Source of the DNA: Planctomycetota bacterium
Lineage (GTDB): Bacteria > Planctomycetota > J058
Length of the DNA: 64,000 nt
NCBI GenBank assembly: GCA_003695705.1
Contig: RFHU01000219.1
Location: 15,825-79,824 of the forward strand
Reading direction: 5' to 3'
Positions within the stretch are counted from its first letter, which is position 1, and every line of letters starts with the position of its first letter. Shown here piece by piece: positions 1 to 54,946 of the stretch. The position numbers and the translations under genes are program-made. The notes beneath the pieces were generated by a model, which saw only the letters and a program-made list of their open reading frames with translations, did no database searches and was not told the origin of the DNA.

Positions 1-173
1 GCGCCGCCGCCGCGGATGCCGAGGCGGCGCGGATCACCGCCCCGACCTTGGTCGTGATCGGCCGCGTGGTCGGACTCCGCGGCCGCGGCCTGCGCTGGTG
101 GAACGACCGCGACGCACGGGAATGCGCCGAGGAGCCAACCCGCGTCGACGTGCTCGCGGAGGCCCGCGCATGA
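1..173 (+). CDS. cobA: Uroporphyrinogen-III C-methyltransferase (SUMT, CobA/CysG C-terminal type); 3' end only, 5' end lies outside the window
   Basis: The frame ending at TGA 171-173 translates ...ITAPTLVVIGRVVGLRGRGLRWWNDRDARE. This matches the conserved C-terminus of SUMTs (PTLVVIG.VV.L). The stop overlaps the next start as ATGA. Confidence 0.55.
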   Translation, partial: AAAADAEAARITAPTLVVIGRVVGLRGRGLRWWNDRDARECAEEPTRVDVLAEARA

Positions 174-817
174 ACCGCAAGTATCCCGTCATGCTCGACC
201 TCCGGGGGCGTGCTTGCGTCGTCGTCGGCGGCGGAGCGGTCGCCCTGCGCAAGGTGGAGGGCTTGCTGGAGTGCACCGAATCGGTCCGGGTCGTCTCCCC
301 CAGCATCCACCCGGGGCTTGCCGCCCTCGTCCAAGCGGGCCGCGTCGAATACCTTGCGCGCGCCTACGCCCCCGGCGATCTCCGGGGCGTCTTTCTCGTC
401 GTGGCCGCCACGGACGACCCGGACACGAACGAGGCCGTGTGGCAGGAGGCCGAAGCGCTCGGAGTGCTCGTCAACACCGTGGACGACCCTCCGCGCTGCA
501 GTTTCTACGTCCCTGCCGTGGTCCGTCGCGGCGCGCTGACCCTCGCGATCTCCACCGACGGGAAGAACTGCGCTCTCGCGGCTGCACTCCGTAGAGAACT
601 CGAGGAGCGGTTCGGGCCCGAATACGGCCCGCTCCTCGATCTCCTTGGCGAGTTGCGCGACCGCATTCGCCGCGAGGAGCGCGACCCGTCCCGTCGCAAG
701 GCCTTGGCGGAGCGACTCGCCACGGCCGGACTGGATCGCCTCGTCGCTTGCGAGGGCCTGCCCGCCGCCCGTCGTCGCGCCGAAGAACTCGTCGCCCAAC
801 GAGGAGCCACCGCGTGA
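170..817 (+). CDS. Precorrin-2 dehydrogenase / sirohydrochlorin ferrochelatase, SirC/Met8/CysG N-terminal-domain-like (NAD-binding)
   Basis: ATG at 170 begins MNRKYPVMLDLRGRACVVVGGGAVALRKVEGLL. This is a Rossmann GxGxxA/G motif at the very N-terminus, as in the CysG N-domain/SirC. The 98..817 track ORF is trimmed to this in-frame ATG, which overlaps the upstream stop. Confidence 0.7.
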   Translation: MNRKYPVMLDLRGRACVVVGGGAVALRKVEGLLECTESVRVVSPSIHPGLAALVQAGRVEYLARAYAPGDLRGVFLVVAATDDPDTNEAVWQEAEALGVLVNTVDDPPRCSFYVPAVVRRGALTLAISTDGKNCALAAALRRELEERFGPEYGPLLDLLGELRDRIRREERDPSRRKALAERLATAGLDRLVACEGLPAARRRAEELVAQRGATA

Positions 818-2289
818 ACTCCCCCCTCCAAGCTTCTGCCGTGCCCCGTCAATGGACCCTTGACTCCACTGATGCTCCTCCCCCGGACTCCGTACGCCAC
901 GGCGAGACCGGCTTCGCCCGTGCCTGGTTGGGGCTGGCCGTCGGCAGCCTCCTCTTTGCCGGTGTCCTGGCCCTGCTCTTGGTCGTGGCCCGGACGCCGC
1001 CCTTCGTGTACTGGGTCCGCGATCCCCTGTTCTTCAAGCGCTGTCTCGTCGTCCACGTCGACCTGGCCCTGGTGGTCTGGTTCTACGCCTTTCTGGCCGC
1101 GCTGCATCAACGGATTCCCGCCCACGCGCCCAGGAGGGTCCCCGCAGCGGCAGGCTTCGCACTCTCCTTGGCCGGCATCGGTGCGCTGGTCGCTGCCGTC
1201 GGCATCGAGGGGGTGGAGCCGGTCCTGAGCAACTACGTCCCCGTTCTGGACCATCCTCTGTTCCTCTGCGGACTGGCGGCCTTCGGCGCCGGAGTGGCCC
1301 TGAGCTTCTTCGACGGACGCTTGCTCCCTTGGCGCGAAGCCGAGGGCACCGACCTCGACCTGCCCCCCGCCGCGCGACCCGGGCTGCGCGCCGCGGCGAT
1401 CGCCTTCCTCCTCGCGCTCGCGACCTTCGTCGGCGGCGCCCTGGGGACGCCGAGCGGACTTCCCGCGCTTCCGCGCTACGAGCTTGCGATGTGGGGGGGC
1501 GGCCACGTCCTGCAGTTCGCCAGCAGCGCTGCCATGGTCGGCGCCTGGCTCCACCTCGTCGAGCGCGCGAGCGGCGTCGCGCCCGTGGGAAGGCGTCTGA
1601 GCGCTGTCCTCTTCGCGCTCCTCGTCGCGCCCCTTCTCGGCGCACCCCTCCTCACCCTCGCCGGCAGCGACGCGACCGTTGCCCGCGACGGGTTCACTCA
1701 GCTCATGCGCTGGGGGATCTTCCCCGTGGTCAGCGTGTTCCTGCTCCTCTGCCTGCGCGCGCTCTGGCGCGGCGGCGGCGCGCGCACCGCGGCCGGCGTC
1801 GGCTTTCTGACCAGCGCCGGGCTGTGCGTGCTCGGCTACTCCCTCGGCGCGCTGATCCGCGAGCCGAACACCATGGTCCCCGCCCACTACCACGCGTCCA
1901 TCGGTGCGGTGACGGCTTCCTTCATGGCCGTCGCCTACTTACACCTCGAGCCCCTCGGACTCCGTCTCCCCGCCGGTCGCTTGGGCCGCTGGGCACACTG
2001 GCAACCCGCTCTGTTCGGGGTGGGCCAGACGGTCTTCGCCGTCGGCTTCGGGGCGGCTGGCCTGGCCGGCGCCGCCCGCAAGGCCTACGGGCCCGAGCAG
2101 AGCATTCGATCCCTGCAGGAGTGGATCGGCCTCACGGTCATGGGCGCGGGCGGCTTGGTCGCTGCCGCCGGCGGGATCCTCTTCCTCACCATCATGGCGG
2201 CGGCCTTCTGGCCCCGCCTCAGGGGCGCGCTGCCCGGGAGGTCTGCATGTCGGACGAAGTTGAGCGCAAACACCCTCTTCAGCGGCTAA
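814..2289 (+). CDS. Polytopic membrane protein (~490 aa) distantly related to heme-copper oxidase subunit I; function unknown
   Basis: GTG at 814 overlaps the upstream TGA (GTGA). There are at least 12 hydrophobic spans. Two segments resemble COX1 helix VI (MWGGGHVLQFASSAAM vs FFGHPEVYILILP) and helix X (PAHYHASIGAVTASFMAVAY vs AHFHYVLSMGAVFAI). No adjacent HH pair typical of helix VII is seen. Confidence 0.55.
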   Translation: MNSPLQASAVPRQWTLDSTDAPPPDSVRHGETGFARAWLGLAVGSLLFAGVLALLLVVARTPPFVYWVRDPLFFKRCLVVHVDLALVVWFYAFLAALHQRIPAHAPRRVPAAAGFALSLAGIGALVAAVGIEGVEPVLSNYVPVLDHPLFLCGLAAFGAGVALSFFDGRLLPWREAEGTDLDLPPAARPGLRAAAIAFLLALATFVGGALGTPSGLPALPRYELAMWGGGHVLQFASSAAMVGAWLHLVERASGVAPVGRRLSAVLFALLVAPLLGAPLLTLAGSDATVARDGFTQLMRWGIFPVVSVFLLLCLRALWRGGGARTAAGVGFLTSAGLCVLGYSLGALIREPNTMVPAHYHASIGAVTASFMAVAYLHLEPLGLRLPAGRLGRWAHWQPALFGVGQTVFAVGFGAAGLAGAARKAYGPEQSIRSLQEWIGLTVMGAGGLVAAAGGILFLTIMAAAFWPRLRGALPGRSACRTKLSANTLFSG

Positions 2290-2399
2290 TGGACAACACC
2301 TGGCTGCTCCTCGCGCTGGGGCTCTTGGTGCCGATCCTCTCCTACACGGCGTGGGGCTGGATCGAACTCCTCACCCTCCCCGACGCGAAGCTGCCTTGA
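2289..2399 (+). CDS. Small single-TM membrane peptide (36 aa), possibly a small oxidase subunit
   Basis: The ATG overlaps the upstream TAA (TAATG). The product is MDNTWLLLALGLLVPILSYTAWGWIELLTLPDAKLP, a single hydrophobic helix. It is tightly packed between two oxidase genes. Confidence 0.4.
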   Translation: MDNTWLLLALGLLVPILSYTAWGWIELLTLPDAKLP

Positions 2400-2412
2400 G
2401 GACGGAGGACGC

Positions 2413-2946
2413 ATGAGCATTTCCCCGCCCCCCCCGGGCTGGTTCAAGGCCCCCACCGGTGGCGAACGCACCTGGGTTGGCATCGCCCTTCTGTGGTGCC
2501 TGCTGATGTTCTTGATGATGCCCTACTGGCACTTCCGCGGCAAACAGAACAGCACCGGCGAGGCCTACCGCGTCGCTCCCGCGGACTTCGCCGCACGGGT
2601 CGAGCGCTTCGTCGAGAGCAACAAGGTCGCCGAAGACCCGCAGAGCAAGAAGCCCATCGTCGAGCCGGCACCCGGTGGAGATGCCTACCTGCAGGCTCGG
2701 ATGTGGGACTGGTACCCCGTGCTCCGCCTGAAGAAGGGCCAGGAATACCGCCTGCACATCTCGTCGCTCGACCTCCAGCACGGCTTCTCTCTCCAGCCCA
2801 TGAACATGAACTTCCAAGTCCTTCCTGGCTACGACCACGTCCTCACCATCACGCCCACACGGACGGGCGACTACCGGGTCGTGTGCAACGAATTCTGCGG
2901 GATCGGACACCACACCATGGTCGGAAAGATCGAAGTGAGGGACTGA
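2413..2946 (+). CDS. Heme-copper oxidase subunit II-like cupredoxin with a complete CuA site
   Basis: GGAGGA lies 6 nt upstream of the ATG. There is an N-terminal TM helix. The CuA ligand pattern is DLQH....CNEFCGIGHHTM (H, C-x-E-x-C-G-x2-H-x2-M), as in CoxB/NosZ-type CuA. Confidence 0.85.
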   Translation: MSISPPPPGWFKAPTGGERTWVGIALLWCLLMFLMMPYWHFRGKQNSTGEAYRVAPADFAARVERFVESNKVAEDPQSKKPIVEPAPGGDAYLQARMWDWYPVLRLKKGQEYRLHISSLDLQHGFSLQPMNMNFQVLPGYDHVLTITPTRTGDYRVVCNEFCGIGHHTMVGKIEVRD

Positions 2947-4484
2947 TGAGCAGCGTCGGCAACTTCCTCCCCAACCAGTCCCGGACTTGCGACACGACCG
3001 GGCTCCCCGTGTGCCTTACGGCCCAGTTCTTCATCAAGGCCCACGCTGTGTGCGCGGTGGTCTTCCTCCTCGTCGGCGCGATCGGCGCCATCCTCCTGGC
3101 GCTGACCCGCTGGCCCGCGGTGCAACTCCTCGGGCCGACCTGGTACTACCGCACGGTCACCCTCCACGGGATCAACATGCTCATCTTCTGGATCCTGTTC
3201 TTCGAGGTGGCCGTCCTCTACTTCTGCTGCACGAGCCTGCTCAACTCGCGCCTGTTCAGCAGAGGCGTAGCGTGGCTCGGCTTCGTCCTCATGGTCGTCG
3301 GCGCGCTGATGACCGACGTGGCCATCTTCCAGGGCCGCTCCGACGTCATGATGACCTCCTACGTCCCCCTCAAGGCCTCGCCCTGGTTCTACCTCGGCTT
3401 GATCCTGGTGGCGGTCGGCACGCTGATCGGGGTGGTGAACTACTTCCTCACCCTCTACATCGCGAAGCGCGACGGGACCTACGATGGTTCGCTGCCGCTG
3501 GTGGTCTTCGGCGCCACGGCGGCCGCCATCATCGCCGTGGTTGCCATCCTCCACGGCGCCGTCGCGCTCATTCCGACCTGGGCCTGGAGCATGGGCTGGC
3601 TCTCCGAGCCCCCGGATGCGGCCTGGTATCGGCTGATCTGGTGGGGCCTGGGCCACGTATCCCAGCAAGTGAACGTGTGCGCCATGGTCTCGGTGTGGTA
3701 CTTCCTCGCCACCCTGACCACGGGCGCCAAACCGCTCAACCAAGCCGTCTGCCGCACCGCCTTCGTCTTCTACGTGTTGTTCATCAACCTGGCGTCGGCC
3801 CATCACCTGCTGGTGGACCCCGGCGTGGGCGCCACTTGGAAGATCTGGAACACCTCCTACGCCATGTATCTGGCCGTGCTCGCCTCCATGATCCACGGCT
3901 TCACCGTCCCGGCCTCGGTGGAATCCGCCATGCGCGCCAAGGGCTATACCAAGGGGCTCTTCGGCTGGCTCTTCGCGTGCCCCTGGAAGAACCCCGGCTT
4001 CTCGGCCTTCTTCCTCTCCTTGGTCATCTTCGGCTTCATGGGCGGCATCACCGGCGTGACGCTAGGGACCCAGCAGATCAACATCATTGCCCACAACACA
4101 CTGCGGATCCCGGGTCACTTCCACGCCACCGTCGTCGGCGGTACCACGCTCGCCTTCATGGGCCTAACCTACTACGTGGTGCCCCTGATCTTCCGGCGCG
4201 AGTACTACGCGCGTCCGCTGGCCCGCATCCAGCCCTACTTGTTCGGCAGTGGGATCGCGATCATGGCCCTCGCCATGTCCTTCGCCGGCAGCTACGGCGT
4301 GCCGCGGCGGGTGTGGGACGCAGACGCCGGCGCCAACCTGTCGGCCGGCGCCAACCTGATGCTCGCCGGGGTGGGTCTTGGCGGCACGCTCGCCTTCATC
4401 GGGCTCTTGACCTTCATTCTGCTCACCGTCGCGGCGGTGTTCTTCGGCAAGAAGAACGAAGGCCGCCCCATGACCGCCTGGTAA
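2946..4484 (+). CDS. Heme-copper oxidase superfamily catalytic subunit I (512 aa) with an atypical active site; candidate NO reductase / unconventional oxidase
   Basis: The ATG overlaps the subunit II stop (TGATG). Metal ligands are present at helix II (LHGINMLIFWILFFE), helix VI (WWGLGHVSQQVNV), helix VII (SAHHLLVDPG) and helix X (GHFHATVVGG). In the helix VI motif the Tyr expected 4 residues after His is Gln. That pattern is NOR-like, not A/B-type oxidase-like. Confidence 0.85.
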   Translation: MSSVGNFLPNQSRTCDTTGLPVCLTAQFFIKAHAVCAVVFLLVGAIGAILLALTRWPAVQLLGPTWYYRTVTLHGINMLIFWILFFEVAVLYFCCTSLLNSRLFSRGVAWLGFVLMVVGALMTDVAIFQGRSDVMMTSYVPLKASPWFYLGLILVAVGTLIGVVNYFLTLYIAKRDGTYDGSLPLVVFGATAAAIIAVVAILHGAVALIPTWAWSMGWLSEPPDAAWYRLIWWGLGHVSQQVNVCAMVSVWYFLATLTTGAKPLNQAVCRTAFVFYVLFINLASAHHLLVDPGVGATWKIWNTSYAMYLAVLASMIHGFTVPASVESAMRAKGYTKGLFGWLFACPWKNPGFSAFFLSLVIFGFMGGITGVTLGTQQINIIAHNTLRIPGHFHATVVGGTTLAFMGLTYYVVPLIFRREYYARPLARIQPYLFGSGIAIMALAMSFAGSYGVPRRVWDADAGANLSAGANLMLAGVGLGGTLAFIGLLTFILLTVAAVFFGKKNEGRPMTAW

Positions 4485-4495
4485 GGAGGCCCCTC

Positions 4496-4756
4496 GTGAC
4501 CGAACCGACGCCCGAACCGAGCGCCAGCCAACCCGAAGGAGCGGGTCCGACGGAGGAAACGACCCGTCCGGCGTCCGAGGGCAAGGGCCAGCACCCCGAG
4601 GAGGTGCTCTCCGCCGCCGCGGCGCTGCAGCAGGAGGGGGCCGACAGCCACCACACCCCCGGAACGGTGGCTCTGACTTTCATCTTCCTCCTCTGCTTTG
4701 CCGTCTACTACTTCGCCAACTGGAAGGCCCTGGCGGACGTGTGGCACGTTCGATGA
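4496..4756 (+). CDS. Small membrane protein (86 aa) with a C-terminal TM helix, possible accessory oxidase subunit
   Basis: AAGGAGG lies 7 nt upstream of a GTG at 4496. The N-terminal half is hydrophilic and acidic. The C-terminal helix is TFIFLLCFAVYYFANWKALADVW. Its stop overlaps the Sco start (ATGA). Confidence 0.45.
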   Translation: MTEPTPEPSASQPEGAGPTEETTRPASEGKGQHPEEVLSAAAALQQEGADSHHTPGTVALTFIFLLCFAVYYFANWKALADVWHVR

Positions 4757-5736
4757 CCGCCGGCAAGAAGTCCCCTGCTCCCCCCAGCGCGCGGTTTGCC
4801 GCCTGGACCCTGGAGACGCTGCGGGGCTGGCGTTTCCCGAGCTTCATGATCTTCACGCTGAGCTTCGCTCAGCTCGTCCTCCTTGCCCTGCTCTTCGTTC
4901 CCCCGGCGGAGACCGGGCTGGGGGCCTTCGCCGAAAGCTTCAAGACCTGGTGCTTCGGCTACGACCCCGCGACGGGAGAGGTGGAGCCCGGCTACGTGAT
5001 CATGCTGCTCGCAAATCCGTTCCTCCTCGACTTGGTCATCCTCGGGGTGTGGTGGATCCCGCTGCGCGAGGTCCTCCGCGAGCGTCCGCGCGCGCTGCTG
5101 CGTAGCGCGGGCGCCGCGGCCCTGGTCACCGCTCTCTTCGCCGGAGCCTTGGCGAGCTTCGCCGAGGAGCGCCCCCGGGGCCCGCTCCCCTTTCCCGCCG
5201 AGGAGCTGCGCATCGCGCTCACCCCGCCCGACTTCGAGCTTACCGACCAGGAAGGCGCTCCCGTCTCCTTGCACGCCCTGCGGGGACGCGTCGTCCTGGT
5301 CACGGCGGTCTACGCGACCTGCGGTTTCACCTGCCCCATGATCATGGGCCAGAGCAAGCGCGCCCTCGCCGAGCTCACCCCCGAGGAGCGCGAGGAGATC
5401 ACGGTGGTGGGGATCACCCTCGATCCGGCCCACGACACTCCGGAAGTCCTCGCCCGCATGGCGGAGGGGCAGGGGGTTGCGGCGCCGCTCTACCGGCTGG
5501 TTACGGGACCTCCCCCCGAAGTCGAGCGCGTGCTCGACCGCTTCGGGGTCGAGCGACATCGGAACCCGGAGACGGGGATCATCGACCACGCCAACCTGTT
5601 TCTTCTCATCGATCGGCGCGGGCGCATCGCCTACCGCCTGTCCCTCGGCGACCAGCAAGAGCGCTGGCTCGCCACTGCGCTGCGCCTGCTCGTGCGCGAG
5701 CCCTCCCCCACGGCGGAGGGTCGCGCCTTGGAGTGA
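4753..5736 (+). CDS. sco: SCO1/SenC-family thioredoxin-like copper chaperone (CuA assembly) with an extended multi-TM N-terminus
   Basis: The CGFTCP (CxxxC) motif and the downstream His (DHANLFLL) are typical of Sco proteins. There are about 3 N-terminal TM helices. It is translationally coupled on both sides. Confidence 0.8.
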   Translation: MTAGKKSPAPPSARFAAWTLETLRGWRFPSFMIFTLSFAQLVLLALLFVPPAETGLGAFAESFKTWCFGYDPATGEVEPGYVIMLLANPFLLDLVILGVWWIPLREVLRERPRALLRSAGAAALVTALFAGALASFAEERPRGPLPFPAEELRIALTPPDFELTDQEGAPVSLHALRGRVVLVTAVYATCGFTCPMIMGQSKRALAELTPEEREEITVVGITLDPAHDTPEVLARMAEGQGVAAPLYRLVTGPPPEVERVLDRFGVERHRNPETGIIDHANLFLLIDRRGRIAYRLSLGDQQERWLATALRLLVREPSPTAEGRALE

Positions 5737-7829
5737 GCGTCGTGCAACGCCCCGCCGCTTCCGCCGCTCCGCGCAGCGCGCAACCTCCGCTGCGCGGAGA
5801 TGCCGTCCTGCGGCGGCTGGACCGCGCGCTCTTGCGCGTGGTCCACGCCGCGGGACGGCTGGTGCCCGAGGGGCTGAATCCCCTCGAGCAAGCCGGCGGC
5901 GTGGCCAACGTATGCCTGGTGGTGGCCATCCTCAGCGGGGCCCTCCTCCTCTTCTGGTATTCCTCCAGCGTCCACCTGGCCTACGCCTCGCTGGAGAAGG
6001 CCGGAGCGTCCTGGCTGGGGGGGCTGACTCGTTCTCTCCACCGCTATAGCTCGGACGGCTGCGTCTTCTTCGTCCTCATCCACGCAGCTCGCTTGACCTT
6101 GGCGCGCCGGATTGCCGGGCCCCGCTGGCTGGCCTGGGTCACCGGCTGGCTGCTCTTCGTCCTTCTCGTCCTCGTCGGCTGGCTCGGCTACTGGCTGGTG
6201 TGGGACCAACGCGCCCACCGCGTGGCCCTGGGGACCGCGGATCTTCTCGACGCCTTGCCCATCTTCTCCGAGCCCCTCGCCCGCTCCTTCCTCAGCGATG
6301 ACGGTGTGAACTCCCTCCTCTTCTTCGTCGTCTTCTTCCTGCACATGCTCCTCCCCGCGGGCATGGGCATAGCCCTGTGGTTGCACGTCGCCCGCCTCTC
6401 TCGGTCGCGCTTCTTCCCCGGGCGCACGCTCACGCTCTGGATCCTCGGGACCCTGTGCGCCGTCTCGTTCCTGTTTCCGGCCACCAGCGCGCCGCCGGCG
6501 CGCATGGCCGCGCTTCCACAGCGCTTCACCATGGACTGGTGGTACCTGTTTCCCCTCCTCCTCACCGACCGACTCTCCGGAGGCGCGCTCTGGGCCCTGC
6601 ATCTCATTGGCGGCCTCGCCCTCTTCAGCGCCCCCTGGTGGCTGCGCCGCGGCGGCTCGGCAGGCACCCTCCGGACCGCCACGACCGAAGCGAGTCGCTG
6701 CAACGCCTGCGAAACCTGTTTTCACGACTGTCCCTACCTGGCCATCCGCATGGTCCCGCGCAGCGACGGGAGCACTCGCTACGCCACCCAGTCGGAAGTG
6801 GACCCCTCGCGCTGCGTGGGCTGCGGCATTTGCTCGGGCTCCTGCGACTCGGCGGGGGTCGGCCTCCTCGACTGGCTCCCCCCCAAGGCCGAGCGCCGTC
6901 GGCTCGAAGGCTGGCTCGAGGCCCATACGGGGGACCCTCCCCCGGTGGTCTTCCTCTGCGCCGAAGGAGCTAGCGCAGAGTGGCGAGTGGACTCGCTCAA
7001 CGGTCGCTGCGACGCCTTGCCGGGTTGCTACGTCCTCAGCGTTCCCTGCCTTGGCTGGGTGAACGGCTACCTGGTGGACCGTGCTTTGGATCGCGGTGCG
7101 GCCGCCGTGGTCCTTGCAGGCTGCGGTCCCGAGGGCTGTGCCTACCGCGAAGGCTTCGCGCACACCGCCGAGCGCATGCGGGGGCGGCGCAAGCCCGTGA
7201 GCAAGCGCGGCGAAGCCGGCGACTCCCGCATCCACCTGCTCGCGCACGGGCCCGGCGAAGGCGCGGCGCTCCGGGCCGCCGTCGATGCCATTCGGCGCGG
7301 AGAGGCCCCCCGGGCCCGGGCGCCCGTTGGCGCGCGCGCCTGGGCGGGGGGCGCTGTCCTCGCCGCATTGCTCGGGGGGTTCGCCTGGCTGGGGAGCGAC
7401 CTCCCTTACTCGGCTCCGCCGAGTCCGGAAGCGGAGTTGGTCGTGTCCTTCAAGCTGCTCGGACGCCTGCAGGGCGGCATGCGCCGGCTCTCCACCGAGG
7501 AGCTCGAGGCCCTGCCCGTCCATATGCGTCCCAAGGACGGTCGGGTGCCCACGGACCGGCGCCACGCCGACGTGCGCCTGCGGGTCCGCGTGGACGGCCG
7601 CCTGCTGCGCGAGGAGCGCTACGCCCCCGGCGGCCTGTGGGGCGACAAGAACAGCGTAGCCCTCGAGACCATCCCGCTCGCTTCTGGGCGGCACCGGGTC
7701 GAGGTGGAGCTGAGCGACGACCCGGCCGCGAACGAATGGCCGTACCGCTACGAAGCCGAGCTGGAATTCCCGCGCGGGGAGCGGCGCGTGGTGCTTTTCG
7801 ACCGCGAGCACGGCTTCCGCTGTCCCTGA
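5733..7829 (+). CDS. Fusion protein: di-heme cytochrome b-like membrane domain + 2x[4Fe-4S] ferredoxin + MvhD/FlpD-like domain + C-terminal TM/beta-rich domain
   Basis: The N-terminus (about 300 aa) has 5-6 TM helices carrying His residues (VVHAAG, FVLIHAARL, FFLHMLLPAGM, LWLHVARL). It is followed by CNACETCFHDCP and CVGCGICSGSCD ferredoxin motifs. Next comes VVFLCAEGA...CLGWVNGYLVDRALDRGAAAVVLAGCGPEGCAYREG, which resembles the methyl-viologen-reducing hydrogenase delta subunit. The GTG overlaps the Sco stop (GTGA). Confidence 0.7.
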   Translation: MSVVQRPAASAAPRSAQPPLRGDAVLRRLDRALLRVVHAAGRLVPEGLNPLEQAGGVANVCLVVAILSGALLLFWYSSSVHLAYASLEKAGASWLGGLTRSLHRYSSDGCVFFVLIHAARLTLARRIAGPRWLAWVTGWLLFVLLVLVGWLGYWLVWDQRAHRVALGTADLLDALPIFSEPLARSFLSDDGVNSLLFFVVFFLHMLLPAGMGIALWLHVARLSRSRFFPGRTLTLWILGTLCAVSFLFPATSAPPARMAALPQRFTMDWWYLFPLLLTDRLSGGALWALHLIGGLALFSAPWWLRRGGSAGTLRTATTEASRCNACETCFHDCPYLAIRMVPRSDGSTRYATQSEVDPSRCVGCGICSGSCDSAGVGLLDWLPPKAERRRLEGWLEAHTGDPPPVVFLCAEGASAEWRVDSLNGRCDALPGCYVLSVPCLGWVNGYLVDRALDRGAAAVVLAGCGPEGCAYREGFAHTAERMRGRRKPVSKRGEAGDSRIHLLAHGPGEGAALRAAVDAIRRGEAPRARAPVGARAWAGGAVLAALLGGFAWLGSDLPYSAPPSPEAELVVSFKLLGRLQGGMRRLSTEELEALPVHMRPKDGRVPTDRRHADVRLRVRVDGRLLREERYAPGGLWGDKNSVALETIPLASGRHRVEVELSDDPAANEWPYRYEAELEFPRGERRVVLFDREHGFRCP

Positions 7830-7853
7830 GGGCCACGGAGCGAAGGAGGAGAC

Positions 7854-9005
7854 ATGGCCGCGACGAAGCAACCGGCAGGCCCCGAGGAGCGGCTCCCCGT
7901 GTCCACAGGCCCGATCCCAGCAGCTGGGCGTTCGGGCGACGGGTCTGCCGCAGACGTCCGACGGGCCCGGAGCACCGGCCTGGCCTCCGCGGACGCCCGG
8001 GGGTGCGAGCCCGAGAGGCTGGCCTCGGCGTGCGGGATCTCCCCCCGCGGCGTCGCCACGGCCGCGCTCGTCCCTCCCTTCGCTCAGGGAGCGAGGGCCG
8101 TGGAGTCACCGGCCCTCCTCGAGGCCGCGCGTCGATCATCCCTCGCCGGCGCGGCCGCCTGGCTGGTCGATCTCGTAGACCTGGTCAAGGCGCGGTTGAA
8201 CTGCCTCGTCCTCGTGACCATCGCCGTGGGCTACCAAGTCGGCCGAGACCTCGTCTTCGACCGTTCCCTCTTCGCGTGGACCCTGCTGGGAGCCTTCCTT
8301 GGCGCCTGCGGCGCCTGCGCGCTCAACCAGTGGTGGGAGGCGGAGCACGATCGCTGCATGCGGCGTACGGCCCGGCGACCCCTCGCCGCCGGGCGCCTTT
8401 CGAGGGATGCGGCCTTGGGGCTCGGCTTGGCCCTCCTGGGCGCCGGGACCGTGGTCCTGCGCACCTGCCATTCCCTCGCGGCCACCCTGAACCTAGCCAT
8501 TGCTGCGGGCTATCTGCTCCTCTATACGCCCCTCAAGCGCCGGAGCGCCTGGTTCCTGCTCCCGGGCGCCGCGGCCGGCGCCGCCCCGCCCCTCATCGGC
8601 TGGTCGGCGGCGCAGGGGAGCCTGGGTGCGGGCGCGTGGGCGCTCTTCGCGGTGGTCTTCTCCTGGCAGTTCCCGCACTTTTGCGCCATCGACTGGTTGC
8701 ATCGAGATGACTACCGCCGCGCGGGCCACCGCACGCCGGTCGTCGTCGACCCCACGGGTCGCCTCGGCTGCGCCCTGACCCTCGCTGGCGCGCTGGGCTT
8801 TTTCGCCTCGTGCCTCGCGCCGGTCGGCCTCGGCCTCGGCGGAACCTACTACGCCGCGGTGGCCGTGCCCCTAGGCCTCGCCTACCTCGCCCTGAGCCTG
8901 CGCTTCGCCTTCGCGCCGAGCGTCGCCTCCGCGCGCGGGCTCTTCTTCGGCAGCCTGTGCGTCCTGCCCCTCGTCCTCGGCGCGCTGGTGCTGGTTCCGG
9001 CTTAA
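7854..9005 (+). CDS. ctaB: Protoheme IX farnesyltransferase (heme O synthase), UbiA family
   Basis: GGAGGAG precedes the ATG. The motifs ALNQWWE..D..M.RT..RPL and a YxxxK-like UbiA signature are present across multiple TM helices. An N-terminal extension of about 90 aa may indicate a later true start. Confidence 0.85.
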   Translation: MAATKQPAGPEERLPVSTGPIPAAGRSGDGSAADVRRARSTGLASADARGCEPERLASACGISPRGVATAALVPPFAQGARAVESPALLEAARRSSLAGAAAWLVDLVDLVKARLNCLVLVTIAVGYQVGRDLVFDRSLFAWTLLGAFLGACGACALNQWWEAEHDRCMRRTARRPLAAGRLSRDAALGLGLALLGAGTVVLRTCHSLAATLNLAIAAGYLLLYTPLKRRSAWFLLPGAAAGAAPPLIGWSAAQGSLGAGAWALFAVVFSWQFPHFCAIDWLHRDDYRRAGHRTPVVVDPTGRLGCALTLAGALGFFASCLAPVGLGLGGTYYAAVAVPLGLAYLALSLRFAFAPSVASARGLFFGSLCVLPLVLGALVLVPA

Positions 9006-9027
9006 GCGGCGTGCTCGGATCGTCTTC

Positions 9028-10233
9028 GTGACCGTGCCGCCCCCCAGCACCGCGCTCGCCTCTGCGCCGACCTGGCGGCGCGAACCCTACCGCCTGCTCT
9101 TTCCCCTCGGCGTCCTCCTCGCCTGGTGGGGCGTAGGGCATTGGCTGCTCGTCGGCCTGTTCGGCATCGGCTCCTGGAGCGGCGTCTTCCACTCCATCGC
9201 GCAGATTCAGGGCTTCCTCATGGCCTTCGCCTGCGGCTTCCTCTACACAGCGGTCCCCCGCCGCACCCAGACCTGGCCGCCCGCCCCCTGGGAAATGGCG
9301 GTCGCCCTCGCCGCACCGCCCGCCACCACCGCCTGCGCCGCGCTTGGCGCCTTGGCCCTTGCCCAGGCCTGCTGGGGCGTGCTGATGCTTACCCTGCTCG
9401 CCTTCTGCCTGCGTCGTTTCCTCGCTCGCAACGCGGGCCGCAGACCTCCCGACTGCTTCCTCTGGGTTCCCCTCTCCTTCGTCCTCGCGCTGGCGGGGGC
9501 GGGGGCCATTGGAGCGCAGCGCGGACTCGGCCCCGAGTGGTTCTGGCTCCACGACCTGGGACAGAAGTGGATCCTCCAAGGGCTCTTCGTGGGGCTCATC
9601 GTCGGCCTGGGCGGAATGGTCCTTCCCCTCCTCACCCGCGGCGAGGCGCCGCCCGACGCCAGTTCCGGCGTCGGGAGCCGCCTACGGCGTACGGGGCACT
9701 TCGCCTCCTGGCTTGGGCTGGCCGGCAGCTTCGTGCTCGAAACCCGCGGCGCGCCGGCGATCGGCTACGCGGTCCGAGCGGGCTTGACCCTTGCGCTCCT
9801 CCTCGGAGTTGCACGCCTCCACCGACCGCCTTGCCTCCCCGGCTTGCATCGCCGCCTGATCTGGGCCTCCGCCTGGTGCCTCCCGCTGGGCTACGCGTTC
9901 GCTGCGCTCGACCCGGGCCGTGCCCAGGCGGGCCTGCACGTGGTCTTCATCGGAGGCTTCGCCGCCCTCGCCCTCGGGGTGGGGCTCCACGTCACCTTGG
10001 CCCACGGCGGCTACCAGGGGCTGGTCCGCAAGAGCCCCTGGCAGGTGGGCGCCCTGGGCGCGCTCCTCGCCTCGGCCACCGCGGCCCGAGCGGCCCTGGT
10101 CTTCCGTCCCGACGCGCTGAGACCGCTGCTGGTCGCGGCGGCCGCCTCCTTCCTGCTCGCCACCCTCGCCTGGTTCCACCTGCTCTTGCCGCGCACCTGG
10201 CGTCCGGCTCCCCCCGACGAGGCGAACCCGTGA
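9028..10233 (+). CDS. NnrS-like polytopic heme/copper membrane protein (NO-stress associated); family assignment tentative
   Basis: It is about 400 aa with about 12 TM helices and several conserved-looking His residues (GHWLL, FHSIAQIQGF, HVVFIGGF, LAHGGY). Size, topology and the nitrogen-oxide gene context fit NnrS. Confidence 0.45.
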   Translation: MTVPPPSTALASAPTWRREPYRLLFPLGVLLAWWGVGHWLLVGLFGIGSWSGVFHSIAQIQGFLMAFACGFLYTAVPRRTQTWPPAPWEMAVALAAPPATTACAALGALALAQACWGVLMLTLLAFCLRRFLARNAGRRPPDCFLWVPLSFVLALAGAGAIGAQRGLGPEWFWLHDLGQKWILQGLFVGLIVGLGGMVLPLLTRGEAPPDASSGVGSRLRRTGHFASWLGLAGSFVLETRGAPAIGYAVRAGLTLALLLGVARLHRPPCLPGLHRRLIWASAWCLPLGYAFAALDPGRAQAGLHVVFIGGFAALALGVGLHVTLAHGGYQGLVRKSPWQVGALGALLASATAARAALVFRPDALRPLLVAAAASFLLATLAWFHLLLPRTWRPAPPDEANP

Positions 10234-10661
10234 CCGAGATCCTCCCCCACGCGAACGCACTCCTGAACGCGCTCGTGGCGGTCTTGCTCCTCTGGGGACG
10301 CCGTGCGATCCGCCGCGGGGACCGCCGGCTCCACCCCCGCTTGATGCTCTCTGCCCTCGGCGTCGGCCTGCTCTTCCTCGCCGGCTACGGCCTGCAGGTC
10401 TCCCTCTCCGGGCACCGACGCTTTCCGGGCGACGACTGGGTGCGTGTCCTGTTCTTGGCGATCCTGGGCACGCACACCGCGCTGGCCGTGCTGACCGTTC
10501 CCCTCGTCGGCGGCGCCCTGGGCCTGGCCCTGCGAGGGCGCCTCGTCGCGCACCGCCGCCTGGCGCGCCTCGCCTGGGGGGTCTGGCTCTTCGTCGCCCT
10601 CTCGGGGATCGTCATTTACTGGCTGAACAACCACCTTCGCCCGCCGGGAGGTGCCGGGTGA
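10230..10661 (+). CDS. DUF420-family small membrane protein (oxidase-associated)
   Basis: It is 143 aa with 4 TM helices. The GTG overlaps the upstream TGA. Size and topology match the DUF420 proteins commonly encoded beside caa3-type oxidase genes. Confidence 0.45.
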   Translation: MTEILPHANALLNALVAVLLLWGRRAIRRGDRRLHPRLMLSALGVGLLFLAGYGLQVSLSGHRRFPGDDWVRVLFLAILGTHTALAVLTVPLVGGALGLALRGRLVAHRRLARLAWGVWLFVALSGIVIYWLNNHLRPPGGAG

Positions 10662-11089
10662 GCAACGGGCTCTTTCCTCAGACCGTCGAATACGCGCTGC
10701 GTCTCATGGCCCATCTCGCCGTTGCGGGGCGCAACGGTTCGCTGCCCTCCCAGGACCTGGCCGAGGCGACCGACATTCCCCTCGCCTACGTGTCCAAGGT
10801 GCTCCGCAAGCTCGTCGTGGCCGGACTCCTCGAGTCCCAGCGCGGTCACGGCGGCGGCTTCCGGCTGGCGAAGAGTCCCTCGCGGATCAGTTTCGCGGCC
10901 ATCATGGAGGCCGTGGGCTACGAACCCGAGCCGCGCGCCTGCGCCTTCGGGCAAGAGCGCTGCGACTCCGAGAATCCCTGCCTGCTCCATCCCGCCTACG
11001 CGGCCCTCAAGGAGCGCTTCGCCGATTGGGCGCGAAACACGACGCTCACCGACGTTCGGCGGGGGACCAGCGGACGGTACATTCTTTGA
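10658..11089 (+). CDS. Rrf2-family transcriptional regulator with three Cys, NsrR/IscR-like (probable NO- or Fe-S-sensing)
   Basis: There is an N-terminal wHTH (VEYALRLMAHLA...SQDLAEATDIPLAYVSKVLRKL). The Cys triad CAFGQERCDSENPC is typical of cluster-binding Rrf2 regulators. The GTG overlaps the upstream stop (GTGA). Confidence 0.8.
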   Translation: MSNGLFPQTVEYALRLMAHLAVAGRNGSLPSQDLAEATDIPLAYVSKVLRKLVVAGLLESQRGHGGGFRLAKSPSRISFAAIMEAVGYEPEPRACAFGQERCDSENPCLLHPAYAALKERFADWARNTTLTDVRRGTSGRYIL

Positions 11090-11289: not shown

Positions 11290-12831
11290 GTGAACCATCG
11301 CAATTCCCTGATCCTGTGCAGTGCCTTGGGCCTGGGTCTCGCCGCCGCGGTCCCGGCCAGGGCGCAAGAAGGCTCCGAAGTCGACGCCCTGCGCGCGCGG
11401 CTCGCCGAGCTGGAGAAGCGCCTCGAAGCGGTCGAGGGCACCGCAAAGGACCCGAGCGCGGTCGGCGCCCCGGAAGGGAGCGCAGCACCCGAGGCCTCCA
11501 CGGAGCCGGCGGCGCCCGCCGAGAAGGAGGCGCCGGCGAAGAAGGGGAAGAAGGGCACTTTCTCCTTCGACCTCCCCGGAGGCCTCCGGCTCCGCCTTTG
11601 GGGTCAAGCCCGCTGGCGGGGAGAGTACCGCGGCGACACCTACGTCCAGCCCAAGACCAACAGCACGACGGATTTCGTCGGACAGCGCACTCGGCTTGGC
11701 CTCGACTTCGACTTGAACAAGCATCTCGGCGTGCGGGTGGCGCTCCAGGACGTTCGCCGTTGGGGTGACGTGGGCGACGGCCTCACCGGGCCCCGCCTGG
11801 CCACCGACCGCGCAGAGATTCACCTCTACGAGGGGTACGGCGAGCTGCGCCGCCCCTGGGACCTCCCCCTGACCCTCCGCGTCGGCCGCATGCGCGTTCC
11901 GCAGCTCGGCGACCAGCGGCTGATCTCGAACCTGGACTGGCATCTCGTGTCTCGTTCGTGGGACGGCGTGCAGGCCACCTTCGAGCCCGAGGGGTGGTGG
12001 ATCATGGCCTTCGCGCACAACGTGCGCGAGCCCACCGGTCTGGTGGCCGGGACCGACGAGAACGATGACCTCTGGTTCAGCGGCCTCTACGTATCCAACC
12101 GCATGGTCGAAGACCTCCAGGTGGACCTGTTCCTCTACTGGCGCTGGCTGGGCGACAACAAGCTGGGGGCCATCGTCACCGACCACAAGGGTGACCGCGG
12201 CGTGCGCACGGACTACACCTTTGGGGCGCGGGTCAAGGGGAAGGCCGGCCCCCTGGGCTACGGCGGCCTGATTGCCTACCAGTACGGCGACCAGGCCGGC
12301 GACATCGTCGCCGCGTGGGCGGGCGCCGTGACGCTCTCCTTCGTCCAGCCTCTCGGCGGCGGGATGAAGTTCAAGGTCCTCGCCGAATACGCCTACGCCA
12401 GCGGAGATCCCGACCCCACCGACAGCCGCGTACAGACCTTCGACCCCTTGCTCCCCTTCGCCCACTACTACCACGGGCACCAGGACTTGTTCGCCTGGCG
12501 CAACCTGCACGCGGTGGCCCTCAAGGCGGTGTTCTGGCCTCTGAAGTGGTTGAGCCTTCATGCCGACACGCACTTCTTCTTCCTCGATCGGCGCGACGAC
12601 CGCTGGTACGGCGTCGGCTTCACCCGCACCGACGGAGCAGGCGCCGCCCGGCACTGGGATTCGGGGTACGTGGGGGCGGAGACCGACCTCTACGTCAAGT
12701 TCAAGGTGCTCGAGCACATTTCCGTGTGGGGAGGCTACTCGCACTTCTTCGAAGGCGCTTACGTTCGCGCCACCGGCTCCAAGTCGAGCGACCAGGACTG
12801 GGCCTTCCTGATGGTTACCTTGGACTTCTGA
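11290..12831 (+). CDS. Alginate-export (AlgE-like) family outer-membrane beta-barrel protein
   Basis: GGAGG precedes a GTG. The signal peptide is LILCSALGLGLAAAVPARAQ. A coiled-coil/Ala-Pro-rich linker is followed by beta-barrel-like alternating segments. The protein ends in the C-terminal Phe (TLDF) typical of OMPs. Confidence 0.65.
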   Translation: MNHRNSLILCSALGLGLAAAVPARAQEGSEVDALRARLAELEKRLEAVEGTAKDPSAVGAPEGSAAPEASTEPAAPAEKEAPAKKGKKGTFSFDLPGGLRLRLWGQARWRGEYRGDTYVQPKTNSTTDFVGQRTRLGLDFDLNKHLGVRVALQDVRRWGDVGDGLTGPRLATDRAEIHLYEGYGELRRPWDLPLTLRVGRMRVPQLGDQRLISNLDWHLVSRSWDGVQATFEPEGWWIMAFAHNVREPTGLVAGTDENDDLWFSGLYVSNRMVEDLQVDLFLYWRWLGDNKLGAIVTDHKGDRGVRTDYTFGARVKGKAGPLGYGGLIAYQYGDQAGDIVAAWAGAVTLSFVQPLGGGMKFKVLAEYAYASGDPDPTDSRVQTFDPLLPFAHYYHGHQDLFAWRNLHAVALKAVFWPLKWLSLHADTHFFFLDRRDDRWYGVGFTRTDGAGAARHWDSGYVGAETDLYVKFKVLEHISVWGGYSHFFEGAYVRATGSKSSDQDWAFLMVTLDF

Positions 12832-19187: not shown

Positions 19188-20252
19188 CTACTCGGGGTTG
19201 TCGGCGTCGGCGGCTGCGGCCACCAGCGCCCCGCGCGCGCAGGATGTGAGTGGGTCGTCGGCGCGACGAATCTCCTTGATGGGGATGGGGAACTGCATCC
19301 TGCTGAACTCGTCGCGGACGACGTCGATGAACCCACCGATCTTGCTGGTCCCGCCGGCGAAGACGATGTCGACCGGATCGGGGAACTGCGGCATGTCCTC
19401 GGAGGTCTCGAAGCGGTTCTTGATCTCGGTGAGGGTGTAGCGGATCAGTTCGCGGTAGTAGAGGTCGATGGCCTGCTCCTCGCGGGTCCGAGGGTTGCGC
19501 AGATCCACTCCCTTCTCCTTGAGGGCCGTCGCGCGGGAAGCCTTGATCCCGAGGACCTTGGCCACGTTGCGGTCGATCCAGTCGCCGCCGCGCGCGGTGG
19601 AAAAGGAGAGGGCCGGCAGGGTCTTGTAGGCCACGCACACGTTGAACATGCCGCCGCCGCAGGAGATGCCGATGCCCGTGAAGTCGTCCTCGTCCAGTTC
19701 GGCGAAGACGATGCAGTGGCCTTCGAGGATGTCCTTGGGGTTGTAGCCCAGCTTGCGCAAGAGGTCGTTGAAGATGCCCTTGTGGTAGACGACGTTCATT
19801 TCGAAGTCGATGGGGTCGGCGGGCACCGAGTAGTAGACGACCTCGTTGGGCACGGCCGGGGGGCCGAGGAGGCGGTCGACGAGCAGCTTCTCGATGGGCA
19901 GCGCGTCGGCCTCCTTGGGGGAGAGCATGCCGTCGGACATGGGGCGACGGGTCTCTCGGTTGTAGATGTTCGCCAGATCGAAGGCCGGGTCGCCGACGAC
20001 GATCATCTTGTTGTTGAGGATGACGTACTGCACGTCCATCTTCGTGAGCATGTTGCGCGTGAAGTCGTTCTGCTCGATGTCGATGAACGCGTTGCGCTGC
20101 ACCTTGATGATTACGTTGCCGTCGTAGTCCTGGACGGCCGCCAGCAGGTTGGCGGTCCCCACGTCCAGCCCCTTCCCCGGGCGCAAGCGAGGCTGGGAAG
20201 TCGATCGCGGGGCAGAGCCGGTCCCGAAATCGATGCTGGGCTTGTCGGTCAT
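19188..20252 (-). CDS. Divergent actin-fold (ASKHA) ATPase, MreB-like motifs
   Basis: The ATG at 20252 has GGAGGA 10 nt upstream; the track TTG is at 20270. The motifs are phosphate-1 LDVGTANLLAAV, phosphate-2 GISCGGGMFNVCV and adenosine IVFAGGTSKIGGF. Composition is I/N/K/F/Y-rich, atypical for the window. Confidence 0.6.
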   Translation of the reverse strand: MTDKPSIDFGTGSAPRSTSQPRLRPGKGLDVGTANLLAAVQDYDGNVIIKVQRNAFIDIEQNDFTRNMLTKMDVQYVILNNKMIVVGDPAFDLANIYNRETRRPMSDGMLSPKEADALPIEKLLVDRLLGPPAVPNEVVYYSVPADPIDFEMNVVYHKGIFNDLLRKLGYNPKDILEGHCIVFAELDEDDFTGIGISCGGGMFNVCVAYKTLPALSFSTARGGDWIDRNVAKVLGIKASRATALKEKGVDLRNPRTREEQAIDLYYRELIRYTLTEIKNRFETSEDMPQFPDPVDIVFAGGTSKIGGFIDVVRDEFSRMQFPIPIKEIRRADDPLTSCARGALVAAAADADNPE

Positions 20253-20543
20253 TGAGCGTTCGTCCTCCAAGAACCGGGGACCCTTCCCCTGGCGAGCACC
20301 GAGCTTACCGGAAGTTCGCCCCGTGTCTACCGGGGCTGGGTCATCGCGCGCCGCGCCCGGTCGGCGCGGTCGACTTCGCAGCGGAGACGCCTTTGCCGGG
20401 TCGTTTCGTCCGGTGCTTGCGCGTCCGATGGCACGCGACTCGTTCGCGCGCTCGGGCGGAGCTCTTGCGCTTCGCCGACCGCGACCCGGGCGCCGAGTTC
20501 GCGTGCGCCCGCCGACCGCATCGCCGGCGCTGCCCGCGGTCGC

Positions 20544-23396: not shown

Positions 23397-23412
23397 TCGG
23401 GCCTCCGGGGAG

Positions 23413-23484
23413 CGCAATTGCGATTTCGTCACGCGCTTCAGCTTCTCTACCGAGGAGGCCCTTGTTGAGTTCCTGGCAATTGCC
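23413..23484. promoter_or_regulatory. Two perfect 10-bp palindromes sharing the core GCAATTGC (CGCAATTGCG at 23413-23422, GGCAATTGCC at 23475-23484), 62 bp apart, in the 5' region of paralog A
   Basis: Read directly from the sequence. They lie 17 to 88 bp upstream of the ATG at 23396. Candidate operator pair. Confidence 0.4.
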
Positions 23485-23817
23485 GAAACGGCCAGAGCCG
23501 GGGTGGGTCCTGCGCAACCTCTTCGGCTGCAGTGCCTTCTGCGCGGAGGGCGCTGTGGCGGGGGCGCCGCGACTCCGTTCGGTCGGGGGGCCGGGCGGTC
23601 AGACCTCGCGGCGAAGCCGCCCGGCCCCGCCAGCGGTCCGTTGCGGAGGGCAGCGATCCCTGCGGTCGCGGGGTTGCAGAAGTGCCTCGCCCCTCGTTCG
23701 GGCTTCTTGGCCGCCGCGCCGGATCGGTCCCGGTACCGAGCGACGCAGCGGCCGGGCAGGGCTGGGCGGGGGCTTGGTTGCGCCCCTGGGCAGGTGCGGG
23801 CCTTCCCTACGAGAGAC

Positions 23818-23850
23818 GCCCGAGCCCCCGCCTTGGGGCGGGGCTCGGGC
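23818..23850 (-). terminator. GC-rich hairpin GCCCGAGCCCCCGCC-ttgg-GGCGGGGCTCGGGC after paralog B (intrinsic-terminator candidate, no U-tract)
   Basis: It is a 14-bp stem with one bulge and a 4-nt loop. It begins 25 nt downstream of the paralog B stop on the minus strand. Confidence 0.4.
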
Positions 23851-23874
23851 GTTCTCCCTCCGGCTCCCAGCGCC

Positions 23875-31572: not shown

Positions 31573-31780
31573 GGGACCCAACCATAAGCCTCCACCCGAG
31601 AATGGCCAGCCCGCCCGAAGGAGCCTTCCCCGCCCTGGCGGACACGGAATGAGGCTCGCCGAGGCGTCCGGAGAACCGTAGACTGCGCCCCGCCGGTCGG
31701 GGTCTTCACGCTCCGACCGCTGCGTTCTCTTCCCTTCTCCTTCGCTCCCTCCATGCGCTGCCGCGCAGTTCGAACTTCTC

Positions 31781-43815: not shown

Positions 43816-43873
43816 GCTCCACGGATACCACACGCGGGCGCCGGGGCGGGCCGTGAGGGGTAGATTGAGGCTG

Positions 43874-54878: not shown

Positions 54879-54946
54879 CGCAGCTACGCTACCCCCGAAG
54901 CACCTGCGGTGCCAGGGGTGCCTTCCGTCACGGTCCCGTGGCGGGT

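Follow-up and report, generated by a model that had tools for sequence, protein, structure and literature searches.

An operon very likely encoding an eNOR-family nitric oxide reductase, joined to nirS and heme d1 genes in an uncultured Planctomycetota-labelled bacterium

We report a same-strand gene run at the left end of a 64,000-nucleotide (nt) stretch of DNA, hereafter the window (contig RFHU01000219.1 of assembly GCA_003695705.1, positions 15,825 to 79,824), from an uncultured bacterium labelled as Planctomycetota. Window positions 814-11089 very likely form a nitric oxide (NO) reductase operon of the eNOR family, joined to the 3' end of a cluster that carries the nitrite reductase gene nirS and genes for heme d1 synthesis. 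We assign the enzyme to eNOR because it combines a glutamine at the position of the tyrosine that is cross-linked in oxygen reductases, a second subunit with a CuA site, and relatedness to the B family of heme-copper oxidases. An earlier note, made from the letters of the window alone, had guessed at an NO reductase; the published eNOR signature is indeed present, and the locus lies immediately downstream of nirS and heme d1 genes. Together the signature and this linkage support a predicted NO reductase function for the window enzyme.

The catalytic subunit I is encoded at 2946-4484 (the + strand, as for every feature described within positions 1-11089) and matches the COX1 family (PF00115, E=6.2e-65). 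Its closest solved structures are B-family ba3 oxidases (E ~1e-41), with A-family structures at 1e-9 or weaker. The exact protein is present at NCBI in a metagenome-assembled genome (MAG) labelled Planctomycetota, on a 90.9-kb contig, and databases annotate it as cytochrome c oxidase. When aligned with MAFFT to the Thermus thermophilus ba3 oxidase (PDB 1EHK/3S8F), whose numbering we follow for the positions below, the protein keeps all six canonical histidines (H72, H233, H282, H283, H384 and H386), as the earlier note had stated. HMMER places its helix VI motif GHVSQQ opposite GHPIVY of ba3, and MAFFT agrees: Y237 and V236 are both replaced by glutamine, with an asparagine at +2, which yields the motif GHxxQQ[VI]N. 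The replacement of the cross-link tyrosine by glutamine in GHVSQQVN, proposed on first reading, thus holds in two alignments, and the claim that no tyrosine compensates for it directly past the helix VII histidine pair holds as well, the sequence there being AHHLLVDP. A scan with subunit I found relatives in 482 species-representative genomes, and all counts out of 80 given below refer to the best 80 of these loci, which do not include R. marinus. The glutamine at the cross-link position (Q241) is at least 95% conserved among the 80 orthologues, and no replacement tyrosine was found in helix VI or VII of the window protein or of any of them.

Subunit II (2413-2946; PF00116 COX2, E=1.3e-5) carries the complete CuA ligand set that had been noticed in it, H123...C158-x-E160-x-C162-G-x2-H166-x2-M169, each position of which is at least 95% conserved in 78 orthologues. 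Equally conserved in these is E18, directly ahead of the transmembrane (TM) helix, which in our reading would correspond to the glutamate (E15) at the K-path entrance of ba3 subunit II. Among the K-path positions of subunit I, S309, Y248 and T315 are kept, while T312 is a histidine, Y244 a valine and S261 an asparagine; the changes at T312 and Y244 and the retention of S309, Y248 and T315 (as T or S) are common to the enzymes with glutamine at the cross-link site, which we refer to as Q-type. The window enzyme and T. thermophilus ba3 are alike in their six histidines, CuA subunit and small IIa-type peptide gene upstream, and S309, Y248 and T315 would point to a single K-type proton path in both, whereas ba3, which reduces O2, has a cross-linked Y237, V236 and T312 where the window protein has Q, Q and H.

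The eNOR family of heme-copper NO reductases was reportedly described by Hemp and Gennis in 2008. Glutamine at the site of the cross-linked tyrosine is diagnostic of eNOR in a tabulation whose entries are Y (oxidases), E (cNOR, qNOR), N (sNOR) and Q (eNOR) (PMC8756737, Table A4). The families named eNOR, sNOR, gNOR and nNOR derive from the B family and have second subunits homologous to CuA subunits; certain eNORs have a His/Lys low-spin heme (PMC11214002). The eNOR of Rhodothermus marinus (Rmar_0161) reduces NO and not O2, and it is the only eNOR for which NO reductase activity without O2 reductase activity, together with heme As cofactors, has been established (PMC11214002). With the family the window locus shares glutamine for tyrosine, a CuA subunit II, B-family origin, a heme O synthase gene in the operon and linkage to nir genes, and it may share the K-channel-like residues; in Ardenticatena maritima an eNOR lies in an operon with NirK (PMC4653789).

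Window subunit I is 53% identical to a Q-type enzyme of Defluviimonas, 49% to that of Thermomicrobium roseum and 47% to that of Thermus thermophilus (from annotated plasmids), all of which carry GHxxQQ[VI]N; helix X of the Thermus protein reads HFK, the His/Lys low-spin heme variant. Tyrosine-containing B-family oxidases from Haloarcula, Deinococcus, Methylobacterium and Paraburkholderia are only 29-32% identical and show GHP/AxVY instead; three of these four matches are adjoined by c-type cytochromes or halocyanin, the Paraburkholderia record being unannotated. Compared with other eNORs, the window enzyme falls in a tight subclade (68-79% identity across phyla, as against 47-53% to Thermus, Thermomicrobium and Defluviimonas) and differs in having its C-terminal helix as a separate gene and no heme A synthase (CtaA) nearby. 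In a neighbor-joining tree, bootstrap values reach 100% for the tyrosine-type B family, 100% for a COX1-like paralogue described below (HCO2), whose own branch position is not resolved, and 73% for the window subclade. Some results weigh against the assignment: a single Q-type clade receives a bootstrap of only 52%, the tree used the Thermus, T. roseum and Defluviimonas proteins as stand-ins for the characterised R. marinus Rmar_0161, and no nosZ, nar or nap genes were found in the 64-kb window.

Other families of NO reductases are excluded by active-site residues. The Bacillus azotoformans bNOR (qCuANOR) and sNOR are likewise CuA-containing, B-family-derived NO reductases without the tyrosine, but they have asparagine in its place (PMC8756737, Table A4; PMC11214002), where the window protein has glutamine. 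In gNOR one CuB/FeB histidine is an aspartate and subunit II has no CuA ligands (PMC11214002); here all three of these histidines and the CuA ligands are present. In nNOR, cNOR and qNOR a glutamate is the fourth FeB ligand, nNOR has a His/Met low-spin heme, and cNOR and qNOR have a secondary domain of the cytochrome c or quinol-binding kind. An nNOR, cNOR or qNOR is ruled out by glutamine rather than glutamate at the site, by the retained His/His HxH motif and by the CuA second subunit. Membership in the A, B or C family of O2 reductases, which have a cross-linked His-Tyr pair (with the tyrosine in helix VI, or in helix VII for the C family), is likewise rejected, no tyrosine being found at helix VI H+4 or past the HH pair.

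What lies upstream became visible in a second assembly (L089) of near-identical sequence (6 mismatches in 14,484 nt), which reaches 7 kb past the left edge of the window. On the same strand it encodes hemA, nirS, a radical-SAM nirJ, a nirF/N-like d1 gene, nirDL, nirE and cysG-N, followed by HCO2, with 4-nt overlaps at each of the nirJ/nirF, nirDL/nirE, nirE/cysG-N and cysG-N/HCO2 junctions. Since nirS and the heme d1 genes precede the cassette with such overlaps, we see a nitrite-reductase plus NO-reductase unit, of which the eNOR cassette is the downstream half. The window itself opens with the 3' end of the nirE-like uroporphyrinogen-III C-methyltransferase gene (1-173, its start lying outside; TP_methylase, PF00590 on L089) and a CysG N-terminal-type precorrin-2 dehydrogenase/ferrochelatase (CysG-N; 170-817; PF13241, 1e-34; TIGR01470, 2.7e-46), which is found in 1 of the 80 related loci and probably belongs to the upstream heme d1/siroheme genes rather than to the eNOR cassette. 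The NirS protein, whose gene (L089 1020-2933) lies some 4.1-6.0 kb upstream of window position 1, has 637 amino acids, with two CxxCH motifs ahead of a d1 domain. This layout resembles C1-C2-NirS, an architecture presented as novel in Chloroflexi by a paper that treats it alongside eNOR (PMC8756737). The locus thereby offers a clear case of nirS, heme d1 biosynthesis genes and eNOR as one unit, in an uncultured Planctomycetota-labelled bacterium.

The proximity of NirS also bears on the claim that the operon has no cytochrome c. That claim stands in so far as no open reading frame (ORF) of positions 1-11089 contains CxxCH, but it is in part an effect of the window edge. The absence of a cytochrome c gene is weak evidence, because NirS with its two CxxCH motifs is encoded just upstream and because NirK-cytochrome c or NirS occurs near related loci.

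Homologues are widespread. At E<=1e-20 subunit I has over 7,900 matches among database proteins, and the 80 best orthologues, 68-79% identical to the window protein (68-73% for those in Rhodothermales MAGs), span Myxococcota, Planctomycetota, Verrucomicrobiota, Leptospiraceae, Rhodothermales/Bacteroidota, Calditrichota, Acidobacteriota and others. Nearly all of these loci come from MAGs, Pelagicoccus sp. SDUM812005 being the sole isolate. Their core begins with the COX1-like paralogue, followed in order by a small peptide, subunits II and I, a further small peptide, Sco and a protein combining cytochrome b, Fe-S and MvhD-like parts (hereafter cytochrome b/Fe-S/MvhD). A tblastn search of each window protein against the 80 loci found subunit I in 80, the second small protein in 80, subunit II in 79, Sco in 78, HCO2 in 77, cytochrome b/Fe-S/MvhD in 76 and the first small peptide in 71; HCO2 is missing from the Rhodothermales/Bacteroidetes loci, where the match is subunit I itself. 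Retention of the cassette in 76-80 of 80 loci counts for the eNOR reading. Within 10 kb lie NirK-cytochrome c fusions at 9 loci, NirS at 7, YtfE/RIC at 5 and Crp/Fnr at 5. HCO2 and the cytochrome b/Fe-S/MvhD protein are thus core members of a cassette found in at least eight phyla and are not oddities of a single organism. Since eNOR is usually annotated as cytochrome c oxidase, denitrification potential and sources of N2O are under-counted.

The HCO2 gene (814-2289; PF00115, E=2e-11) encodes a divergent COX1-like paralogue. Its AlphaFold2 model (pLDDT 92.4, pTM 0.91) shows the 12-helix subunit I fold, and Foldseek returns COX1, bo3, ba3 and cbb3 folds at a TM-score of ~0.7 with 14-18% identity. 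In ba3 numbering HCO2 keeps H72 (helix II), H233 (helix VI), the HxH of helix X (H384/H386) and R449, and it retains the propionate-binding Arg/Lys pair; helix VII has Ala-Pro for His-His, and Phe stands at Y237. This ligand pattern is invariant among relatives down to 29% identity, in a well-delimited family of 685 representatives of 50%-identity clusters at E<=1e-30 and 1,598 at E<=1e-3 (among 1.84 billion representatives). With the heme-ligand histidines kept and the helix VII pair lost, we infer a protein with two hemes and no metal B, most likely a non-catalytic partner or electron relay. Five members of the family (P0466, P0468, P0470, P0494 and P0503) are 650-760 amino acids long, with extra N- or C-terminal regions; if fused domains, as they may be, they could give a clue to the partner of the family.

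Two small membrane proteins flank the catalytic subunits. The first, a single-helix peptide of 50 amino acids (2247-2399, with an alternative start at 2289; called as a gene on L089), we take to be the positional analogue of ba3 subunit IIa (cbaD); the Thermus, T. roseum and Defluviimonas loci have small ORFs there too. The second, of 86 amino acids (4496-4756; a GTG start after an AAGGAGG ribosome-binding site, also a gene on L089), aligns with the C-terminal extension of subunit I of Thermus, T. roseum and Defluviimonas and would be, on this alignment, the helix that longer forms of eNOR subunit I carry at their C terminus, separated by gene fission. In 47 of the 80 loci subunit I includes this last TM helix; in the other 33 it has an ORF of its own, out of frame with subunit I in 22 and in frame but past a stop in 11; the count includes a frame check, as alternative frames stay open in high-GC DNA. 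The arrangement looks like recurrent gene fission or fusion.

The protein encoded at 5742-7829 joins a bc1-type cytochrome b with two hemes, two [4Fe-4S] ferredoxin motifs, an MvhD/FlpD-like part, a TM helix and a periplasmic beta-sandwich, and it models well (pLDDT 91). Invariant are the heme-ligand histidines H103, H117, H204 and H218, a PWDQ-like GYWLVWD motif and D268-W-W-Y in the loop that holds PEWY in bc1. With the membrane topology of a cytochrome b, both CxxCxxCxxxC ferredoxin motifs should face the cytoplasm, as should the MvhD-like cysteines (C409, C439, C464). After the extra helix comes the beta-sandwich (residues 556-698; window 7398-7829), in which H575, H597, M598, H654, D621 and D638 are conserved in homologues; the window copy has Leu at 575 and misses a Cys pair found in many of them. 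A sequence search gave this domain no relatives in Pfam or the PDB and no match to a known copper chaperone. Unlike the cytochrome b of bc1 and b6f complexes, the window protein has no Rieske or cytochrome c1 partner, and its chain also includes the ferredoxin and MvhD-like domains and the uncharacterised beta-sandwich on the periplasmic side. NosR and NapH may be functional analogues of it.

We propose the following scheme, in which the composition of the enzyme is read from the genes and the paths of electrons and protons follow what is known of the family. The enzyme would comprise subunit I, with two hemes and a three-His metal B site holding Fe or Cu, subunit II, the IIa-like peptide and the split-off C-terminal helix. 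Electrons would pass from CuA to the low-spin heme and on to the high-spin heme and metal B, where 2NO + 2e- + 2H+ would give N2O + H2O; because NO reduction is a two-electron reaction, the His-Tyr cofactor would not be needed. Protons probably enter from the cytoplasm through a K-path-like chain formed by E18 of subunit II, T315, H312, S309 and Y248 (ba3 numbering), and with such cytoplasmic uptake NO reduction would be electrogenic. Sco would load or reduce the CuA site, CtaB would make heme O, the precursor of a heme A-type cofactor, and DUF420 probably helps to assemble the heme A-type enzyme. Rrf2 probably controls the cassette, to which NnrS would add NO protection. The cytochrome b/Fe-S/MvhD protein is most likely a dedicated redox module. 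Its two b hemes would connect the quinol pool, or else a reductant in the cytoplasm, across the membrane with eNOR on the periplasmic side, where the protein could either donate electrons or give redox support in the manner of NosR.

That subunit I could instead be a normal O2 reductase of the B family, or a Q-type heme-copper enzyme whose chemistry is other than NO reduction, is suggested by its B-family ancestry and CuA subunit, by the heme A-type maturation genes and by the database label; we consider this very improbable, given that neither the window protein nor its 80 orthologues has a cross-link or replacement tyrosine, that the characterised eNOR is unable to reduce O2 (PMC11214002), and that the genes are linked to nirS. 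An NO reductase could also serve mainly as a detoxification module against nitrosative stress, under an NO-sensing Rrf2 repressor, rather than as an energy-conserving step of denitrification. Translational coupling to nirS and the heme d1 genes in this genome argues against that role, and the conserved K-path-like residues suggest charge separation. The NnrS and Rrf2 genes within the operon would suit detoxification, but Rrf2 scores under the NsrR cut-off and NnrS occurs at a single related locus. There are also the YtfE/RIC genes near 5 related loci, the roughly 64 of 80 loci without a nitrite reductase within 10 kb, the lack of nosZ, nar and nap in the window, and the self-contained look of a cassette spread over many phyla; even so, we judge a mainly detoxifying role unlikely.

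The cytochrome b/Fe-S/MvhD protein may well be there to supply eNOR, on the periplasmic side, with electrons from quinol or from a reductant in the cytoplasm, a dedicated input that we put forward tentatively; NosR-like redox support, or maturation of copper and heme centres, is a possibility to which we give less credit. Stated for the pair, this last idea would make the cytochrome b/Fe-S/MvhD protein, and possibly HCO2, maturation factors instead of electron-transfer partners: reducing power carried across the membrane would maintain the reduced state of Sco, of copper or of the CuA cysteines or, alternatively, would support the conversion of heme O to a heme A-type cofactor where no CtaA is nearby. 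We hold it to be doubtful. The gene lies after Sco in every case and often ahead of CtaB, and the His and Met residues of the periplasmic domain (H575, H597, M598, H654) are of the kind found in Cu(I) sites, but the window copy is without H575 and the domain matches no known copper chaperone in sequence. No CtaA was found in the 80 loci or the window, and the T. roseum eNOR locus, which has a CtaA-CtaB fusion, is without the cytochrome b protein, a pattern that counts for maturation, as does the lack of either accessory protein at the Thermus and T. roseum loci. The retained quinol-site-like motifs (GYWLVWD, DWWY), superfluous for a plain electron conduit, speak against it, and for an assembly factor so large a protein, with five cofactors, would be unusually costly. 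A bolder arrangement, which we think improbable, unites cytochrome b/Fe-S/MvhD, HCO2 and eNOR in a cytochrome c-independent supercomplex with quinol-based bifurcation or reverse electron flow. There a Rieske-less Qo-like site would oxidise quinol, one electron would go to CuA and NO reduction, and the second would travel by way of the b hemes and Fe-S clusters and reduce a cytoplasmic acceptor of low potential, the driving force coming from the NO/N2O couple, whose potential is very high. A preprint on Ferrigenium raised a related idea, quinol:NAD+ oxidoreduction, for a FAD/NAD-containing paralogue (bioRxiv 10.64898/2026.01.22.701106).

The roles proposed for cytochrome b/Fe-S/MvhD and HCO2 are drawn only from architecture and synteny. 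Several observations weigh against either protein being essential for catalysis: eNOR has been described as a two-subunit enzyme, the R. marinus eNOR is active with artificial donors (PMC11214002), and the Thermus and T. roseum eNOR loci are without both proteins. It follows that neither would be needed for catalysis. The conserved pair makes the electron supply of eNOR, and its maturation without a nearby heme A synthase, approachable by experiment.

The earlier note had taken the gene composition to be undescribed. We find that the locus is a further example of the known eNOR system, whose operon composition has already been reported, and not a new kind of enzyme. For the Ferrigenium straubiae operon the listed parts are eNOR II and eNOR I, a heme o synthase, sco1, and an "eNOR scaffold protein of unknown function", which is a hypothetical protein given the KEGG orthology (KO) term for COX subunit I (K02274); to these come two cytochrome b/Fe-S proteins, of which one has the annotation ferredoxin/F420-hydrogenase delta subunit (bioRxiv 10.64898/2026.01.22.701106). 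Its proteins were detected under denitrifying conditions, and the eNOR gene set is termed "a very common observation" (bioRxiv 10.64898/2026.01.22.701106). The parts list matches that of the window, with homology drawn from annotations and not from sequence. F. straubiae alone has a cytochrome b/Fe-S/FAD/NAD(H) protein, PerM and another gene order, whereas NnrS, DUF420, Rrf2 and the fusion to nirS and heme d1 genes are particular to the window. The Defluviimonas eNOR locus is similar too, with CyoE, Sco and a cytochrome b/2x[4Fe-4S]/FlpD protein. Novelty of composition is therefore unsupported. HCO2 is probably the counterpart of the Ferrigenium scaffold protein: the Joint Genome Institute annotates HCO2 homologues with the same COX subunit I KO (K02274).

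The remaining genes of the operon comprise Sco, CtaB, NnrS, DUF420 and Rrf2. Sco (4753-5736; PF02630, 5e-23) is a Sco1/SenC-type copper chaperone in which the CxxxCP motif and His283 are invariant among 74 orthologues. It has a long N-terminal membrane extension (window 4753-5200) with a W-C-F-G motif, in which C71 is at least 80% and F72 and G73 are at least 95% conserved; ordinary single-anchor Sco proteins have no such extension. Heme O synthase (CtaB/CyoE; 7854-9005; TIGR01473, 1.5e-66, 225 bits against a 210-bit cut-off) is found in 30 of the 80 loci. The NnrS-family membrane protein (9028-10233; PF05940, 6e-29) and the DUF420 protein (10230-10661; PF04238, 4.6e-34) occur in 1 and 2 loci, respectively, which rules them out as conserved parts of the cassette. 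A three-Cys Rrf2-family regulator (10658-11089; PF02082, 3e-31) has homologues in 33 loci, mostly divergent and upstream of the cassette; at the Thermus locus an Rrf2 gene follows subunit I.

The note had described this regulator as being of the NsrR/IscR type and the operon as wired to NO-stress genes, and neither description survives. Against the NsrR model NF008240, Rrf2 scores 27 bits where the cut-off is 182, the IscR cut-off is likewise unmet, and only the superfamily model is cleared; an identification as NsrR by NCBIfam cut-offs is thus not supported. NnrS being found in one locus of 80, its NO-stress wiring is a local addition. In 12 intergenic regions between divergent Rrf2 and HCO2 genes, no common palindrome or 8-mer was found that might serve as a shared Rrf2 operator.

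The region has about 70% GC, with a third-position GC of 0.81-0.88 along the same-strand gene run. Nearly all genes are joined by 1-4 nt overlaps or 13-24 nt gaps, in agreement with the translational coupling proposed before; the small peptide gene at 2247 overlaps HCO2 by 43 nt. A promoter scan returned no promoters, and terminator-like sites did not exceed the shuffle expectation, a scan of 70% GC DNA being uninformative. The ORFs had been placed correctly in the earlier note, and its families (NnrS, Rrf2, Sco, heme O synthase, DUF420 and the cytochrome b-ferredoxin-MvhD fusion) are matched by domain models. Its inventory was sound for the genes it listed but overlooked HCO2 (814-2289), the small peptide genes (2247-2399 and 4496-4756) and the nir-linked tail (1-817).

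Directly 3' of the Rrf2 gene, an alginate-export-type outer-membrane beta-barrel is encoded at 11290-12831 (+; PF13372, 1e-48); a homologue lies near the cassette in just 2 of the 80 related loci. The remainder of the window is housekeeping in character (DnaE, GroEL, AccA, a Mur ligase, Ser/Thr kinases), with no nir, nos or nar genes. Ser/Thr kinases are encoded at 43712-45079, 54713-56410 and 57809-61087; the many such kinases and the closest cassette homologues are typical of Myxococcota, and the Planctomycetota label may be worth checking. The minus strand carries a deoxyhypusine synthase-like protein (30469-31941; PF01916, 3.7e-71) and, at 21744-25443, two adjacent large proteins with weak matches to the C-terminal domain of squalene-hopene cyclase. 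The actin-like Volactin family was described from haloarchaea; a strong match to it (PF25216, E=4.8e-85) is encoded in this bacterial MAG at 19188-20270 on the minus strand.

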